Part shown: positions 45,955 to 64,000 of the stretch, one piece after another
Position numbering within the stretch: the stretch's first letter is position 1
How the letters are laid out: each line of letters opens with the position of its first letter
Source of the DNA: Eledone cirrhosa
Taxonomy: Eukaryota
Direction: 5' to 3'
Length of the DNA stretch: 64,000 nucleotides
NCBI GenBank assembly: GCA_964016885.1
Contig: OZ024745.1
Coordinates: 25,234,001-25,298,000 of the forward strand
Notes under the pieces: generated by a model
Seen by the model: the letters and a program-made list of their open reading frames with translations, nothing else
Database searches by the model: none
Told to the model about the DNA's origin: nothing
Position numbers and translations under genes: made by a program

Positions 45955-48900
45955 TACTGTTATATCTAGTGCAGTGAGTTAACTGGCTGCCTGGGGTTGT
46001 AGACCACTTATGTATTATAGGATATAGTACTGTTATATCTAGTGCAGTGGGTTAACTGGCTGCCTGTGGTTGTAGACCACTTATGTAGTATAGGATATAG
46101 TACTGTTATATCTAGTGCAGTGAGTTAACTGGCTGCCTGTGGTTGTAGACCACTTATGTAGTATAGGATATAGTACTGTTATATCTAGTGCAGTGGGTTA
46201 ACTGGCTGCCTGTGGTTGTAGACCACTTATGTAGTATAGGATATAGTACTGTTATATCTAGTGCAGTGGGTTAACTGGCTGCCTGTGGTTGTAGACCACT
46301 TATGTAGTATAGGATATAGTACTGTTATATCTAGTGCAGTGGGTTAACTGGCTGCCTGTGGTTGTAGACCACTTATGTAGTATAGGATATAGTACTGTTA
46401 TATCTAGTGCAGTGGGTTAACTGGCTGCCTGTGGTTGTAGACCACTTATGTAGTATAGGATATAGTACTGTTATATCTAGTGCAGTGGGTTAACTGGCTG
46501 CCTGTGGTTGTAGACCACTTATGTAGTATAGGATATAGTACTGTTATATCTAGTGCAGTGGGTTAACTGGCTGCCTGTGGTTGTAGACCACTTATGTAGT
46601 ATAGGATATAGTACTGTTATATCTAGTGCAGTGGGTTAACTGGCTGCCTGTGGTTGTAGACCACTTATGTAGTATAGGATATAGTACTGTTATATCTAGT
46701 GCAGTGGGTTAACTGGCTGCCTGTGGTTGTAGACCACTTATGTAGTATAGGATATAGTACTGTTATATCTAGTGCAGTGGGTTAACTGGCTGCCTGTGGT
46801 TGTAGACCACTTATGTAGTATAGGATATAGTACTGTTATATCTAGTGTAGTGGGTTAACTGGCTGCCTGGGGTTGTAGACCACTTATGTAGTATAGGATA
46901 TAGTACTGTTATATCTAGTGTAGTGGGTTAACTGGCTGCCTGTGGTTGTAGACCACTTATGTAGTATAGGATATAGTACTGTTATATCTAGTGCAGTGGG
47001 TTCACTGGCTGCCTGGGGTTGTAGACCACTTATGTAGTATGGGATATAGTACTGTTATATCTAGTGCAGTGGGTTAACTGGCTGCCTGTGGTTGTAGACC
47101 ACTTATGTAGTATGGGATATAGTACTGTTATATCTAGTGCAGTGGGTTAACTGGCTGCCTGTGGTTGTAGACCACTTATGTAGTATAGGATATAGTACTG
47201 TTATATCTAGTACAGTGGGTTAACTGGCTGCCTGGGGTTGTAGACCACTTATGTAGTATGGGATATAGTACTGTTATATCTAGTGCAGTGAGTTAACTGG
47301 CTGCCTGGGGTTGTAGACCACTTATGTAGTATGGGATATAGTACTGTTATATCTAGTGCAGTGGGTTAACTGGCTGCCTGTGGTTGTAGACCACTTATGT
47401 AGTATGGGATATAGTACTGTTATATCTAGTACAGTGGGTTAACTGGCTGCCTGGGGTTGTAGACCACTTATGTAGTATGGGATATAGTACTGTTATATCT
47501 AGTGCAGTGAGTTAACTGGCTGCCTGGGGTTGTAGACCACTTATGTAGTATGGGATATAGTACTGTTATATCTAGTGCAGTGGGTTAACTGGCTGCCTGT
47601 GGTTGTAGACCACTTATGTAGTATAGGATATAGTACTGTTATATCTAGTACAGTGGGTTAACTGGCTGCCTGGGGTTGTAGACCACTTATGTAGTATGGG
47701 ATATAGTACTGTTATATCTAGTGCAGTGGGTTAACTGGCTGCCTGTGGTTGTAGACCACTTATGTAGTATGGGATATAGTACTGTTATATCTAGTGCAGT
47801 GGGTTAACTGGCTGCCTGTGGTTGTAGACCACTTATGTAGTATGGGATATAGTACTGTTATATCTAGTGCAGTGGGTTAACTGGCTGCCTGTGGTTGTAG
47901 ACCACTTATGTAGTATAGGATATAGTACTGTTATATCTAGTGCAGTGGGTTAACTGGCTGCCTGGGGTTGTAGACCACTTATGTAGTATGGGATATAGTA
48001 CTGTTATATCTAGTGCAGTGGGTTAACTGGCTGCCTGTGGTTGTAGACCACTTATGTAGTATGGGATATAGTACTGTTATATCTAGTGTAGTGGGTTAAC
48101 TGGCTGCCTGTGGTTGTAGACCACTTATGTAGTATGGGATATAGTACTGTTATATCTAGTGCAGTGGGTTAACTGGCTGCCTGTGGTTGTAGACCACTTA
48201 TGTAGTATGGGATATAGTACTGTTATATCTAGTGCAATGGGTTAACTGGCTGCCTGGGGTTGTAGACCACTTATGTAGTATGGGATATAGTACTGTTATA
48301 TCTAGTGCAGTGGGTTAACTGGCTGCCTGTGGTTGTAGACCACTTATGTAGTATGGGATATAGTACTGTTATATCTAGTGCAGTGGGTTAACTGGCTGCC
48401 TGTGGTTGTAGACCACTTATGTAGTATGGGATATAGTACTGTTATATCTAGTGTAGTGGGTTAACTGGCTGCCTGTGGTTGTAGACCACTTATGTAGTAT
48501 GGGATATAGTACTGTTATATCTAGTGCAGTGGGTTAACTGGCTGCCTGGGGTTGTAGACCACTTATGTAGTATGGGATATAGTACTGTTATATCTAGTGT
48601 AGTGGGTTAACTGGCTGCCTGTGGTTGTAGACCACTTATGTAGTATGGGATATAGTACTGTTATATCTAGTGCAGTGGGTTAACTGGCTGCCTGTGGTTG
48701 TAGACCACTTATGTAGTATGGGATATAGTACTGTTATATCTAGTGCAGTGGGTTAACTGGCTGCCTGTGGTTGTAGACCACTTATGTAGTATGGGATATA
48801 GTACTGTTATATCTAGTGCAGTGGGTTAACTGGCTGCCTGTGGTTGTAGACCACTTATGTAGTATGGGATATAGTACTGTTATATCTAGTGCAGTGGGTT

Positions 48901-50188
48901 AACTGGCTGCCTGGGGTTGTAGACCACTTATGTAGTATGGGATATAGTACTGTTATATCTAGTGCAGTGGGTTAACTGGCTGCCTGTGGTTGTAGACCAC
49001 TTATGTAGTATAGGATATAGTACTGTTATATCTAGTGTAGTGGGTTAACTGGCTGCCTGGGGTTGTAGACTACTTATGTAGTATGGGATATAGTACTGTT
49101 ATATCTAGTGTAGTGGGTTAACTGGCTGCCTGGGGTTGTAGACCACTTATGTAGTATAGGATATAGTACTGTTATATCTAGTGCAGTGGGTTAACTGGCT
49201 GCCTGTGGTTGTAGACCACTTATGTAGTATAGGATATAGTACTGTTATATCTAGTGTAGTGGGTTAACTGGCTGCCTGTGGTTGTAGACCACTTATGTAG
49301 TATAGGATATAGTACTGTTATATCTAGTGCAGTGGGTTAACTGGCTGCCTGTGGTTGTAGACCACTTATGTAGTATAGGATATAGTACTGTTATATCTAG
49401 TGTAGTGGGTTAACTGGCTGCCTGGGGTTGTAGACCACTTATGTAGTATAGGATATAGTACTGTTATATCTAGTGTAGTGGGTTAACTGGCTGCCTGTGG
49501 TTGTAGACCACTTATGTAGTATAGGATATAGTACTGTTATATCTAGTGCAGTGGGTTAACTGGCTGCCTGTGGTTGTAGACCACTTATGTAGTATAGGAT
49601 ATAGTACTGTTATATCTAGTGTAGTGGGTTAACTGGCTGCCTGGGGTTGTAGACCACTTATGTAGTATGGGATATAGTACTGTTATATCTAGTGTAGTGG
49701 GTTAACTGGCTGCCTGGGGTTGTAGACCACTTATGTAGTATGGGATATAGTACTGTTATATCTAGTGCAGTGGGTTAACTGGCTGCCTGTGGTTGTAGAC
49801 CACTTATGTAGTATGGGATATAGTACTGTTATATCTAGTGCAGTGGGTTAACTGGCTGCCTGTGGTTGTAGACCACTTATGTAGTATAGGATATAGTACT
49901 GTTATATCTAGTGCAGTGGGTTAACTGGCTGCCTGTGGTTGTAGACCACTTATGTAGTATAGGATATAGTACTGTTATATCTAGTGCAGTGGGTTCACTG
50001 GCTGCCTGTGGTTGTAGACCACTTATGTAGTATGGGATATAGTACTGTTATATCTAGTGCAGTGGGTTAACTGGCTGCCCGTGGTTGTAGACCACTTATG
50101 TAGTATGGGATATAGTACTGTTATATCTAGTGCAGTCGGTTAACTGGCTGCCTGTGGTTGTAGACCACTTATGTAGTATGGGATATAG
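45955..50188. repeat. 73-bp tandem satellite, about 58 copies
   Basis: Unit tactgttatatctagtgcagtgggttaactggctgcctgtggttgtagaccacttatgtagtatRggatatag; period 73 (46171 to 46244). Confidence 0.97.
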
Positions 50189-59745: not shown

Positions 59746-60941
59746 CTTCCCACATCCTTTGTCATGTGTCTCTATTGATTAGTCATTAGTGATGTCAATG
59801 ATGAGAAGTAGCTTCATATGGGAATGGAAATTATGGGGCCACCACCACAAGCTTTGACCCCCCCCCCCCGCGTCGCAACTGCCATTATTACCACCTCACC
59901 ACTGTCGCTGCTACCACCATCACCACTACCAACAAAATCACTCCCACCACCACCACCACCAAAACCGCTATCACCACCATCCCTATCACCCCTCACCACT
60001 ACCATTGCTGCTTCCACTACCACCACCACCACCATACCTGTTTCTTGATTTAGTTCTTCCATTCACATGTAGAATGCACTGCGCAGGCTTCCTTGTGAGG
60101 ACGAGTGTCTGAGTTTTCGTAGCACTAACAGGAAAATGAATGAATATAGACAGTAATCCCATCTCATCGGTTGACCGCTAGAGATACGTTGTTTCGGTAA
60201 TTTAGGGCCAATACAACTGGCTCTAATGCACAAGGGCACAAGGGACAGTTACAAATAGATAAAAGACAGGACGATAGTCTTAACGACTATTTACAAATAA
60301 TAGCGGACTTTCCACTAAGCCAATGATCTGCTACTGAAATAATATCGACAAGGCCAACCATATCGATTAGCCAAGAAGAAGGAAAAGAGATAGAGAATAT
60401 GCAAATGTTAATAAAATTATTGTCGGTTTGTTTGGACGTTACGTCCTAAAAAGACAGATACAACTAGCAGAGAGGAAGAGAGAGAGAGAATGAGAGTGAG
60501 AGAGGAAGTGAGAGAGAGAGAGAGAGAGAGAGTAAGTGAAGAAAGATAGACAAACATGGAGGTGTAAGATAAAATATATCAATATGAAAAAAGAGCCCCA
60601 CGTTGCTAAAAACATACGAATGAATAAAAAATATGGATGAAGACAGGAAAATAAACGAATACAGACAGTACTCCATTGCTATCAGTTGACCACCAGAGAC
60701 ACGTTGTTTTTATACTGTATGGCCAATACAACTGGCTCAAGGGCACAAGGGACAGTTACAAATGGGCAAAGGACAAAACGATAGTCTTAACGATTACTTA
60801 GACCCCGTAAGGATGAAAGGCAAAGTTAACCTCGGCAGGATTTGAATTCAGATCATAAAGGGCCGTAACTCTATGCTGTAAAGCATGGCGTCCGACCCTC
60901 TACCGATATTGCCAATCCACCCATACCCACACGAAGTCGTT

Positions 60942-61168
60942 CATCATATTGATTAGCGTATGTGTGCATCATATTGATTAGCGTATGTGTGCATCATATT
61001 GATTAGCGTATGTGTGCATCATATTGATTAGCGTATGTGTGCATCATATTGATTAGCGTATGTGTGCATCATATTGATTAGCGTATGTGTGCATCATATT
61101 GATTAGCGTATGTGTGCATCATATTGATTAGCGTATGTGTGCATCATATTGATTAGCGTATGTGTGCA
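60942..61168. repeat. Perfect 25-bp minisatellite, 9 copies (catcatattgattagcgtatgtgtg)
   Basis: Period 25 (60942 to 60967), between divergent family-A SINEs at 60801-60921 (-) and 61275-61527 (+). Confidence 0.95.
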
Positions 61169-61751
61169 CTCTAAGTAATGAATTTATATTTCAGTAATAC
61201 AAACCTAATTATATCATTGAGTAAGGAAGCAGCCGAAGTTGTACCGATTCTCTCCGACTAGCTTCGTATACCTGGTGGATTGGCAATATCGGTAGAGTGT
61301 CGGACGTCATGCTTTGCAGCTTAGAGTTACGGCCCTTTGTGATCTGAGTTCAAATCCCGCCGTTAACAAAGTTAACGGCGGGATTTGAACGGGATTTGAA
61401 AAGTTAACTTTACCTTTCATCCTTACGGGGTCGATAAAATAAAGTACCAGTCACGCACTGAAGTCGATTTAATCGACTTTCCCCGCCCCCAAAATTGCTG
61501 GCCTTGTGCCTATATAAGAAACCATTATATATATCGAGGTGCGTAGCTGAATGGTTAGAAAATTTGCAATCGTAAGGTTGTGAGTTCGATTCTTGGACCG
61601 GGCGATGCGTTATGTCCTGCTTGCATTTGCGGTCGGTAGATAGTATTAGCAATTGGAGACACCAATGGAATCATTGTTTCCTCGGTCCGATTTGACGAGC
61701 TCCACACCACTCTTTAAGCGAATGAGGTCTGGGATCTTGTCGATCGACTGT

Positions 61752-61859
<108 letters not shown>

Positions 61860-62197
61860 ATGGCCCGGTTTCCAATAGGTCATTATATATAATATATAAA
61901 AAAAAAGATACATTAGTAAAAGCATTTAATATATTTTCTGTCGGGTTTCCATGAGGTTTTCATTAAAAAAATTGTCCAGTTCAAACTTTAAATAACAAAA
62001 ATAAACTAAATGATATTGTTTATTTGTTTTTTTCCCTTTTTTCTTTTTTTTTTCTTGCTCTACTGAATTGGAAAATTTTCATTACACAAAACTGATATTC
62101 TAAGCAGGCTCTAGTATTATATATAAACACTACGTGCTTTGAAGAAGAAAAAAAAAAACATTTTATATGTGTGTGTGTATATTCATGTATGTAATCA

Positions 62198-62243
<46 letters not shown>

Positions 62244-62309
62244 GAAGAGAGAAGAAACATTTAGATATAATTAGTAATAAAATGTATCATACCTAAACTG
62301 TTCCTAAAT

Positions 62310-62397
62310 TCCTCGACTACGTAGTTTCGTGGCATAAACAAAAACAATATATCAAAGATATAGAGTCCTTGCGAGGTCTGCCGACTTATCAAGAGGA
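62310..62397 (-). ncRNA. Type I hammerhead ribozyme, U3-A8 core variant, unit 1
   Basis: Minus strand: tcctc-TTGATAA-gtcggca-[44 nt]-tgccac-GAAA-ctacgtag-TC-gagga. Predicted cleavage after GUC, between 62315 and 62314. Confidence 0.8.
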
Positions 62398-62900
62398 TAC
62401 CTCATTTTACTAGTCTCAAGAACGCGTCTACACGACGTGAGAAAGAATCCCAAAAGGCGGAGGGGGAGATAGTCACGCGACATAACGGTCGAGAAACAGA
62501 GCTAAGCCTCTTATAACCACGAAGAAAATACCACGGAGGCGGAGGGGGTATTCATATCGAGGCCGTAGAAGAGGTAGTGAAGAAGGCGAGAAGTATGAGT
62601 AATGGAAGCTTTCCAGTTGTCCCCACACTTCAAAGATTGCTCGACCAGAGGGAGTTATTAATATATTAAGAAACACATAGATACATGCGGACACACACAT
62701 ATATACATGAATGCATCCGCACCCAACTGTGAGTTAAGGGTGCCAACTTCACCGATGTTGCTCAATGAATGACTGGGACAGACCAATTCAGTTTAAACCA
62801 GACTGAACCAGTATCAGAGTTAAAAATACATTATGAAGAGAGAAGAAACATTTAGATATAATTAGTAATAAAATGTATCATACCTAAACTGTTCCTAAAT

Positions 62901-62988
62901 TCCTCGACTACGTAGTTTCGTGGCATAAACAAAAACAATATATCAAAGATATAGAGTCCTTGCGAGGTCTGCCGACTTATCAAGAGGA
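62901..62988 (-). ncRNA. Type I hammerhead ribozyme, U3-A8 core variant, unit 2
   Basis: Identical to unit 1, offset +591. Confidence 0.8.
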
Positions 62989-63491
62989 TACCTCATTTTA
63001 CTAGTCTCAAGAACGCGTCTACACGACGTGAGAAAGAATCCCAAAAGGCGGAGGGGGAGATAGTCACGCGACATAACGGTCGAGAAACAGAGCTAAGCCT
63101 CTTATAACCACGAAGAAAATACCACGGAGGCGGAGGGGGTATTCATATCGAGGCCGTAGAAGAGGTAGTGAAGAAGGCGAGAAGTATGAGTAATGGAAGC
63201 TTTCCAGTTGTCCCCACACTTCAAAGATTGCTCGACCAGAGGGAGTTATTAATATATTAAGAAACACACAGATACATACGGACACACACATATATACATG
63301 AATGCATCCGCACCCAACTGTGAGTTAAGGGTGCCAACTTCACCGATGTTGCTCAATGAATGACTGGGACAGACCAATTCAGTTTAAACCAGACTGAACC
63401 AGTATCAGAGTTAAAAATACATTATGAAGAGAGAAGAAACATTTAGATATAATTAGTAATAAAATGTATCATACCTAAACTGTTCCTAAAT

Positions 63492-63579
63492 TCCTCGACT
63501 ACGTAGTTTCGTGGCATAAACAAAAACAATATATCAAAGATATAGAGTCCTTGCGAGGTCTGCCGACTTATCAAGAGGA
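63492..63579 (-). ncRNA. Type I hammerhead ribozyme, U3-A8 core variant, unit 3
   Basis: Identical to unit 1, offset +1182. Confidence 0.8.
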
Positions 63580-64000
63580 TACCTCATTTTACTAGTCTCA
63601 AGAACGCGTCTACACGACGTGAGAAAGAATCCCAAAAGGCGGAGGGGGAGATAGTCACGCGACATAACGGTCGAGAAACAGAGCTAAGCCTCTTATAACC
63701 ACGAAGAAAATACCACGGAGGCGGAGGGGGTATTCATATCGAGGCCGTAGAAGAGGTAGTGAAGAAGGCGAGAAGTATGAGTAATGGAAGCTTTCCAGTT
63801 GTCCCCACACTTCAAAGATTGCTCGACCAGAGGGAGTTATTAATATATTAAGAAACACACAGATACATGCGGACACACACATATATACATGAATGCATCC
63901 GCACCCAACTGTGAGTTAAGGGTGCCAACTTCACCGATGTTGCTCAATGAATGACTGGGACAGACCAATTCAGTTTAAACCAGACTGAACCAGTATCAGA

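Follow-up and report, generated by a model that had tools for sequence, protein, structure and literature searches.

Tandem 591-bp hammerhead units in Eledone cirrhosa as a possible genomic record of single RNA templates

Here we describe a non-autonomous PLE/retrozyme of Eledone cirrhosa that, as known here from genomic sequence, is built of 591-bp non-coding tandem units with one hammerhead ribozyme each. The variants shared among the units point to one monomer RNA, probably circular, that was read repeatedly in each insertion. We regard as about evenly balanced the fuller reading that each insertion is the fossil of one ADAR-marked RNA circle that was released by a dimer-acting, pseudoknotted U3–A8 hammerhead and primed twice by a PLE to give two arms. 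The new part is the genomic record of a single monomer template together with a two-end rule; nothing similar was found in the literature that was searched.

The window that was analysed is a stretch of 64,000 nucleotides (contig OZ024745.1, positions 25,234,001 to 25,298,000). It holds three hammerhead copies at 591-bp spacing and represents the left arm of one insertion, with three minus-strand units; past the window the insertion inverts, continues for ~6.8 further plus-strand units and ends at the end site E2 (G000:C5:25302057). The features of the element within the window are as follows.

62197..62240, no strand: (TA)n target microsatellite (repeat sequence)
62241..62831, minus strand: unit 1, with its 3′ end at ~62241, the end site E1 (sequence, 3′ end counts)
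62659..62663, minus strand: second fixed end site E2 (unit 169-173) in unit 1 (3′ end counts, arm pairing)
62832..63422, minus strand: unit 2, with a hammerhead copy at 62901-62988 (sequence)
63423..64000, minus strand: unit 3, with a hammerhead copy at 63492-63579 (sequence)
62310..62397, minus strand (62397-62310): type I hammerhead copy 1 (sequence, pair counts, conservation)
62397-62393 and 62314-62310, minus strand: stem I of copy 1, UCCUC paired with GAGGA (sequence)
62392-62386, minus strand: core of copy 1, UUGAUAA, with U3 and A8 (sequence)
62329..62385, minus strand: extended helix II, with a proximal stem that has a bulged C, an internal loop and the distal stems GCAAGGAC/GUUUUUGU and UAUAUC/GAUAUA (fold)
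62328-62325, minus strand: GAAA of copy 1 (sequence)
62316..62325, minus strand: 10-nt palindrome ACUACGUAGU, which is helix III, with predicted pairing between units (energies, subfamily conservation)
62315/62314, minus strand: predicted cut of copy 1, after C 62315 (sequence)
62399..62404, minus strand: UGAGGU, predicted pseudoknot strand 5′ of stem I (pair counts)
62372..62377, minus strand: ACCUCG, predicted pseudoknot partner in the internal loop of helix II (duplex −6.9 kcal/mol, pair counts)
62244..62314, minus strand: long hairpin immediately 3′ of the cut that stops a few bases short of E1 (folds)

Elsewhere in the window, an inverted SINE-like repeat pair (60801-61432; arms of 89 nt and 30 nt) surrounds a perfect array of 25 bp × 9 (60942-61168), and a 73-bp minisatellite with 58 copies at 98% identity occupies 45955-50188.

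A sequence-only reading of this DNA had placed a hammerhead at 62310..62397 and left its strand unstated; the coordinates, core, GAAA and palindrome hold from the sequence, on the minus strand. As that reading had said, the core is UUGAUAA instead of CUGAUGA. Both the core (NUGANNA / GAAA / UH with a 3–8 Watson–Crick pair, here U3–A8) and the presence of three helices with covariation, of which helix I is open, are those of a type I hammerhead, and copy 1 also has the G10.1–C11.1 pair. The core-plus-palindrome pattern has 7,633 matches in the 3.0-Gb genome, compared with 96 for a reversed-pattern control, an abundance far beyond chance. In an Rfam scan of the motif at E ≤ 10 no hammerhead family was matched; the Rfam models are likely to be defeated by the long helix II and by U3–A8. 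The expectation that CUGANGA-based and other standard searches would miss the motif was thus borne out, and a very abundant ribozyme family escapes censuses of both kinds. The sequence-only reading had overlooked that loop II belongs to an extended helix, that a pseudoknot is likely and that the motif lies in a mobile element.

Retrieval by the core pattern gave 81 distinct ribozyme haplotypes, the core columns of which are therefore invariant by choice, and 40 of these were collected as the structure set. A model with 34 pairs leaves 95.4% of cells paired in the 40 haplotypes, a value that none of 500 shuffles reached, compared with 33–50% for slid controls. Covariation in the stems of homologues, which the sequence-only reading had set as a test, is present in stem I, where changes occur on both sides and one pair is found in three states (C–G in 18, U–A in 17 and U–G in 4 of the 40 haplotypes). 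The stems of extended helix II are paired in 97.9% and 92.1% of cells of the same set; in its distal part, 11 of 14 pairs vary on one side only, switching between A–U and G–U. What had been described as a 44-nt structured loop II does span 44 nt (62378-62335) between the strands of proximal stem II, but is really the long extended helix II, with the UAUAUC(UUU)GAUAUA hairpin, a real structure, as its tip (92% of cells paired). A second proposed sub-hairpin, CCU(CGCA)AGG, is unsupported and was rejected, with a pair probability of 0.0 and 55.8% of cells paired in 40 relatives.

A pseudoknot of 6 bp is likely to form between UGAGGU and ACCUCG. These strands are paired in 97.5% of cells, with a terminal pair that is U–A in 27, U–G in 11 and C–G in 2 of the 40 haplotypes; only one pseudoknot pair varies on both sides within the 591-bp family. 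In a second family with a C3–G8 hammerhead (family B, described below), other letters pair at the place of the pseudoknot (94.5%; 28 of 29 haplotypes). The common ancestry of the 591-bp family (family A) and family B is borderline, and for this reason we grade the pseudoknot as likely. On the 3′ side of the cut, the hairpin at 62244..62314 can, in predicted folds, sequester the 3′ strand of stem I, which may be its role. The monomer from cut to cut folds far better than shuffled sequences (z = −5.2; −4.7 as a circle).

Covariation in stem I and the conservation of the core and proximal stem II together show that the ribozyme is under selection: none of the 32 columns of the core and proximal stem II differs between 35 old and 67 young insertions, compared with 95 of 559 columns elsewhere (p = 0.005), and the core is frozen between subfamilies that are 16% apart. 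Old copies, picked by non-ribozyme sequence, all retain U3 and A8 (43 rows, in which one locus is repeated twice and two copies are young). C3 occurs in only 10 copies in the genome, all with A8; a C3–G8 member of the 591-bp family was found neither among these 10 nor among the 100 matches listed of at least 200 to the family B pattern. U3–A8 is a fixed trait of the 591-bp family, and no compensatory event was seen within the family. The sequence-only reading had argued for selected function from a double compensatory change; selection on the hammerhead stands, but the argument is weak because U3–A8 never covaries and no copy has C3–G8. Natural U3–A8 covariants of the hammerhead have been reported (PMC3088659), and in the available part of a study of Schistosoma PLEs U3–A8 is present in about 1,300 motifs, with a palindromic helix III and dimer action also described (PMC4209133). 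U3–A8 and the palindromic, dimer-type helix III are, on the available text of these two papers, already published for PLE hammerheads, and the three features in the title of the sequence-only reading are either already published or partly misread.

According to energy predictions, cleavage is likely to take place in a dimer that is held together by the palindromic helix III. What favours the dimer is the difference in stability between the two forms of helix III: the 10-bp self-duplex, with a predicted energy of −12.9 kcal/mol, is stable, and the monomer hairpin of 3 bp and an ACGU loop, at +1.5 kcal/mol, is not. These energies agree with the earlier suggestion that cleavage may need the pairing of adjacent units, and they limit the description of stem III as a loop-less palindrome, which is right about the palindrome and true of the missing loop only in the dimer. 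A 2017 paper in RNA Biology reportedly treats dimeric PLE hammerheads and may overlap with this point. We hold it to be somewhat unlikely that the hammerhead instead cleaves as a monomer, with the pseudoknot compensating for the weak 3-bp helix III and its ACGU loop and the palindrome being incidental. All 10 bases of the palindrome, the central CG included, are identical in the old and young subfamilies, and the instability of the monomer hairpin speaks against monomer cleavage as well; on the other side, pseudoknots strongly raise hammerhead rates in the available account (PMC3088659), and in family B the central two positions are free to vary and the palindrome is often lost, so that a 4-bp hairpin form is tolerated there. 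Predicted pairing in the monomer is low (0.16 for G10.1–C11.1 and about 0.1 for helix III), and minimal PLE hammerheads are reported to cleave poorly (PMC4209133), as are 8 of 9 Xenopus retrozyme dimers to fail to cleave (10.64898/2026.07.22.740005, in the part available); all of this counts against the preferred reading.

Copies of the element are dispersed over many contigs, in arrays of up to about 10 units per insertion. The 5′ ends of insertions are scattered across the unit. Among 122 3′ ends, 57 lie at unit 4-7 (E1, about 80 nt past the cut) and 44 at unit 169-173 (E2), and the E1–E2 tail is about 165 nt long. The two sites are used together: of the 66 insertions with two arms, 55 have one arm ending at E1 and the other at E2, and in no case do both arms end at E1 or both at E2. 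(TA)4 follows 90 of 92 E1 ends and 75 of 79 E2 ends (165 of 171 in total) compared with 2 of 16 other ends. The element thus has the PLE-like traits of a partial tandem and inverted structure, two fixed ends and AT-rich or microsatellite targets. It also has the retrozyme trait of mobility via an RNA intermediate, as indicated by the variable 5′ and fixed 3′ ends, the spread over many contigs and the sense-strand A>G excess described below. The unit contains no convincing coding remnants, the longest stop-to-stop frame within the array being 86 amino acids, and the window gave neither an ORF with RT plus GIY-YIG, as in an autonomous PLE, nor a tblastn match. Two GC-box-like GGCGGAGGGGG motifs per unit lie upstream of the ribozyme (62456-62466 and 62538-62548) and may be a possible internal promoter. 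At the inversion junction of one insertion (L080:5206-5266), an 11-nt piece of the unit is repeated about five times, a pattern that resembles RT stuttering.

Full units of young insertions differ by 0.91 bases within and by 7.25 between insertions. Thirty-four variants are private to one of the 67 young insertions and fixed in all of its covering units, 20 of them on both arms; one such variant, AA>GG, has 7 matches in the genome, all in one insertion and on both strands. The nearest neighbour of a unit lies strictly inside its own insertion in 52 of 81 cases and outside in 3, and the rest are tied, a proportion that counts against the preferred reading. The units are exact across the cut-site junction. 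Only 1 of 138 5′ ends falls at unit 514-520, about the uniform expectation, which indicates that RT crosses the cut site. It is the private variants common to all units of both arms, together with this lack of a 5′ pile-up at the cut, that point to a single monomer template. Contigs of two sequencing runs (X1 and X2) in which the unit forms a closed 591/590-nt loop were discounted, as tandem DNA gives the same result and the runs contain PLE pieces as well; no RNA run with the unit was listed in a search of sequencing runs.

Some of the templates may have been edited. Derived template-level changes, polarised against an intermediate subfamily and read in the ribozyme sense, comprise 24 A>G and 7 T>C (expected share 0.38, p = 1e-5), whereas changes confined to single units comprise 10 A>G and 17 T>C, as composition predicts. 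A 5′-G neighbour is found at 1 of 24 A>G sites compared with 28 of 132 (p = 0.016), and 7 of the 9 variants in insertion L080 are A>G. Taken together, these observations argue for passage through RNA in the ribozyme sense. ADAR disfavours a 5′ G neighbour; transcription-coupled repair is another possible source of A>G bias, usually a far smaller one. The private variants taken alone give a weak excess (10 A>G and 6 T>C, p = 0.04; 6 and 6 without L080, p = 0.29), and the autonomous PLE of this genome has no overall A>G excess (7 versus 8, among the 23 of 26 loci that passed an identity filter); both results count against the reading of edited templates. One autonomous PLE copy (L254, G000:C1:127698000-127705500) carries a cluster that looks like editing: five A>G changes in a 55-nt part of the PLE 3′ region, shared by its two arms.

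A linear template would account equally well for the homogeneity of the units and for the shared edits, if monomers were cut by the ribozyme and RT jumped from the 5′ end to the 3′ end at each lap, with no need of a covalent circle; the L080 stutter shows that RT can slip and re-prime. Such jumping should leave failed jumps or scars at the cut site, yet almost no 5′ ends lie there and the units run exactly across the junction, and the RNA of other animal retrozymes is, in the available account, mainly circular (PMC7229834). We consider it quite unlikely. Highly improbable, in our judgement, is that the template was an uncleaved multimer, or that arrays grew or were homogenised at the DNA level by gene conversion or unequal crossover, with the hammerhead unnecessary for mobility. 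In the available description of in vitro work on a Poseidon PLE (PMC11167929), unprocessed RNA was inserted, hammerhead mutations made no difference and the cut site was not the end point of any RNA-seq read; these data count against the preferred reading and fit an uncleaved multimer, just as a satellite-growth model (10.64898/2026.07.22.740005, in the part available) fits growth at the DNA level. The lack of a pile-up of ends at the cut is also as expected in either case, and a parent locus with the private variants could be absent from a haploid assembly. However, both arms end at RT start sites and so were made at insertion, private variants are fixed across the inverted arms, and an uncleaved multimer would not easily yield L080, all of whose covering units carry the same seven A>G changes; a core that is frozen over 16% divergence is at odds with a dispensable hammerhead.

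A template that is a cleaved circle would fit a sequence of events that we judge rather probable, in which a tandem transcript undergoes dimer-assisted cleavage, ligation into a circle and occasional editing before PLE double priming and rolling-circle copying into (TA)n. The hammerhead would cut tandem transcripts into monomers, with neighbouring units pairing through their palindromes and the pseudoknot between 5′ flank and loop II aligning helices I and II. Monomers with 2′,3′-cyclic phosphate and 5′-OH ends would then be ligated into circles, and a lone circle without a partner palindrome would resist re-cutting. ADAR may edit some of these templates. A PLE protein dimer would nick both (TA)n strands and use a single template to prime at two internal positions, E1 and E2 (the PLE ‘tail’). 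Each RT would cross the junction repeatedly over several laps, and the product would be two inverted arms of several units each. A circle model for PLE hammerheads has been proposed, without in vivo evidence in the available parts of the papers (PMC4209133, PMC7229834).

One PLE is abundant in the genome (15,171 candidates, 150 of which were scored). Two elements outside the window bear on the helper and on relatives of the 591-bp family.

L172:5500-8626 (G000:C2): young autonomous Poseidon-type PLE with a 3,127-bp unit (intact 900-aa RVT_1 + GIY-YIG frame)
L082-L111, for example L089:1161-1874 (G000:C1): family B, a ~710-bp non-coding element with a C3–G8 hammerhead of the same layout

PLE machinery is implicated by the inverted two-arm, two-fixed-end and (TA)n geometry, which is like that of the intact Poseidon-type PLE: its copies are E1/E2 in 8 of 13 two-arm cases and have (TA)n flanks and a 40-nt tail. 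The L172 PLE also carries a minimal hammerhead, in which position 4 of the core, CCGAAGA, is a C and the helix III palindrome is AAUU. Family B, the closest C3–G8 family with this architecture and older than family A, has at least 200 motif matches compared with 8 for the control. Two of its stem I pairs covary, and its copies have (TA)n flanks and end at two fixed sites; in the alignment of the A and B hammerheads, 20 of 500 shuffles score as high. At L089:39-1160, a PLE 3′ fragment is joined directly, without (TA)n, between the arms of a family B insertion, which suggests that the RT switched templates during a single event. At L071, L108, L263 and L264 a PLE copy also lies next to family A or B, but (TA)n or other flanking sequence separates the two, and these cases were set aside. 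For family A, no chimera with a PLE was present at 67 inverted junctions, and no autonomous PLE with the family A ribozyme or a homologous pLTR was found in the one PLE family examined; both results count against the preferred reading. The likeness of the post-cut region to the PLE is insignificant (210 of 500 shuffles), as is that to family B (152 of 500). Because neither a chimera nor a homologous pLTR was found for family A, we infer, rather than identify, the helper as the Poseidon-type PLE of this genome or a relative. Another possible helper is a family of RT/GIY-YIG-like fragments with a YRDDGL motif (L063:2640-3173, L067:1832-2350, L068:74-1198 and L099:441-899), which we take to be Nematis-like PLEs; the two fragments that were tested had no Pfam match. 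A U3–A8 hammerhead-like motif with a 4-nt ACGU helix III lies in an unrelated (TA)-flanked element (L269:5508-5590, G000:C1:60323012); other searches for further U3–A8 families returned mostly family A, or the ends of LINE-like ORFs.

As far as the available parts of the published accounts describe them, animal non-LTR retrozymes (Cervera and de la Pena 2020, PMC7229834; Li et al. 2026, 10.64898/2026.07.22.740005) share with the 591-bp family non-coding tandem units with one type I hammerhead each, a GC content below 45%, dispersed arrays, a structured monomer and a proposed circular intermediate and PLE helper. Their units measure 150–450 bp in the 2020 study and 51–972 bp in the 2026 preprint, compared with 591 bp here. 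Unlike those retrozymes, the 591-bp family has U3–A8, a 10-nt palindromic helix III and a 57-nt helix II arm with a predicted pseudoknot in place of canonical loop–loop contacts, and its two-arm insertions are inverted and end at two fixed sites; an autonomous pLTR homologous to it was not found. With the PLE hammerheads (min-HHR, U3–A8 variant of Schistosoma mansoni Cercyon; PMC4209133, on its available text) it shares type I, U3–A8, a long helix II and a palindromic helix III with a predicted dimer, whereas its palindrome is much longer than their minimal or 2-nt forms, it has no extra base between positions 9 and 10.1, and its unit is non-coding rather than an ORF-flanking pLTR.

The insertions themselves resemble those of Penelope/Poseidon PLEs (PMC11167929; PMC8557442, both in the parts available) in their partial tandems, inverted 5′ arm, AT-rich or microsatellite targets and a tail, downstream of the hammerhead, that is bounded by two RT start sites, and differ in being formed by a 591-bp element without an ORF, with a tail of about 165 nt rather than 30–40 and up to about 10 units. 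PLEs in general are described as having tails, inversions and a bias towards microsatellites (PMC8557442), and in vitro a Poseidon PLE is reported to cut and extend both strands of AT-rich DNA, with two internal RT starts by which the tail is delimited (PMC11167929). Pseudoknotted hammerheads (Perreault et al. 2011, PMC3088659, in the part available) likewise have a Watson–Crick contact between the stem I and stem II regions, whereas the contact predicted here joins the 5′ flank of stem I to the internal loop of extended helix II and is combined with a dimer-type helix III. Nothing was found in the literature on the 591-bp family or on editing marks in retrozyme copies, which subscription papers and supplements may cover.

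The genomic record favours a monomer template through the private variants shared by both arms, the editing marks and the strict two-end rule. If the proposed reading is true, it would provide genomic evidence that hammerhead cleavage and circularisation are obligatory in PLE-driven retrotransposition, and it would mean that RNA editing has been written back into the germ line by a PLE-driven route. The family is young, numbers thousands of copies and shares its genome with an intact PLE, and its record makes the role of PLE hammerheads directly testable.
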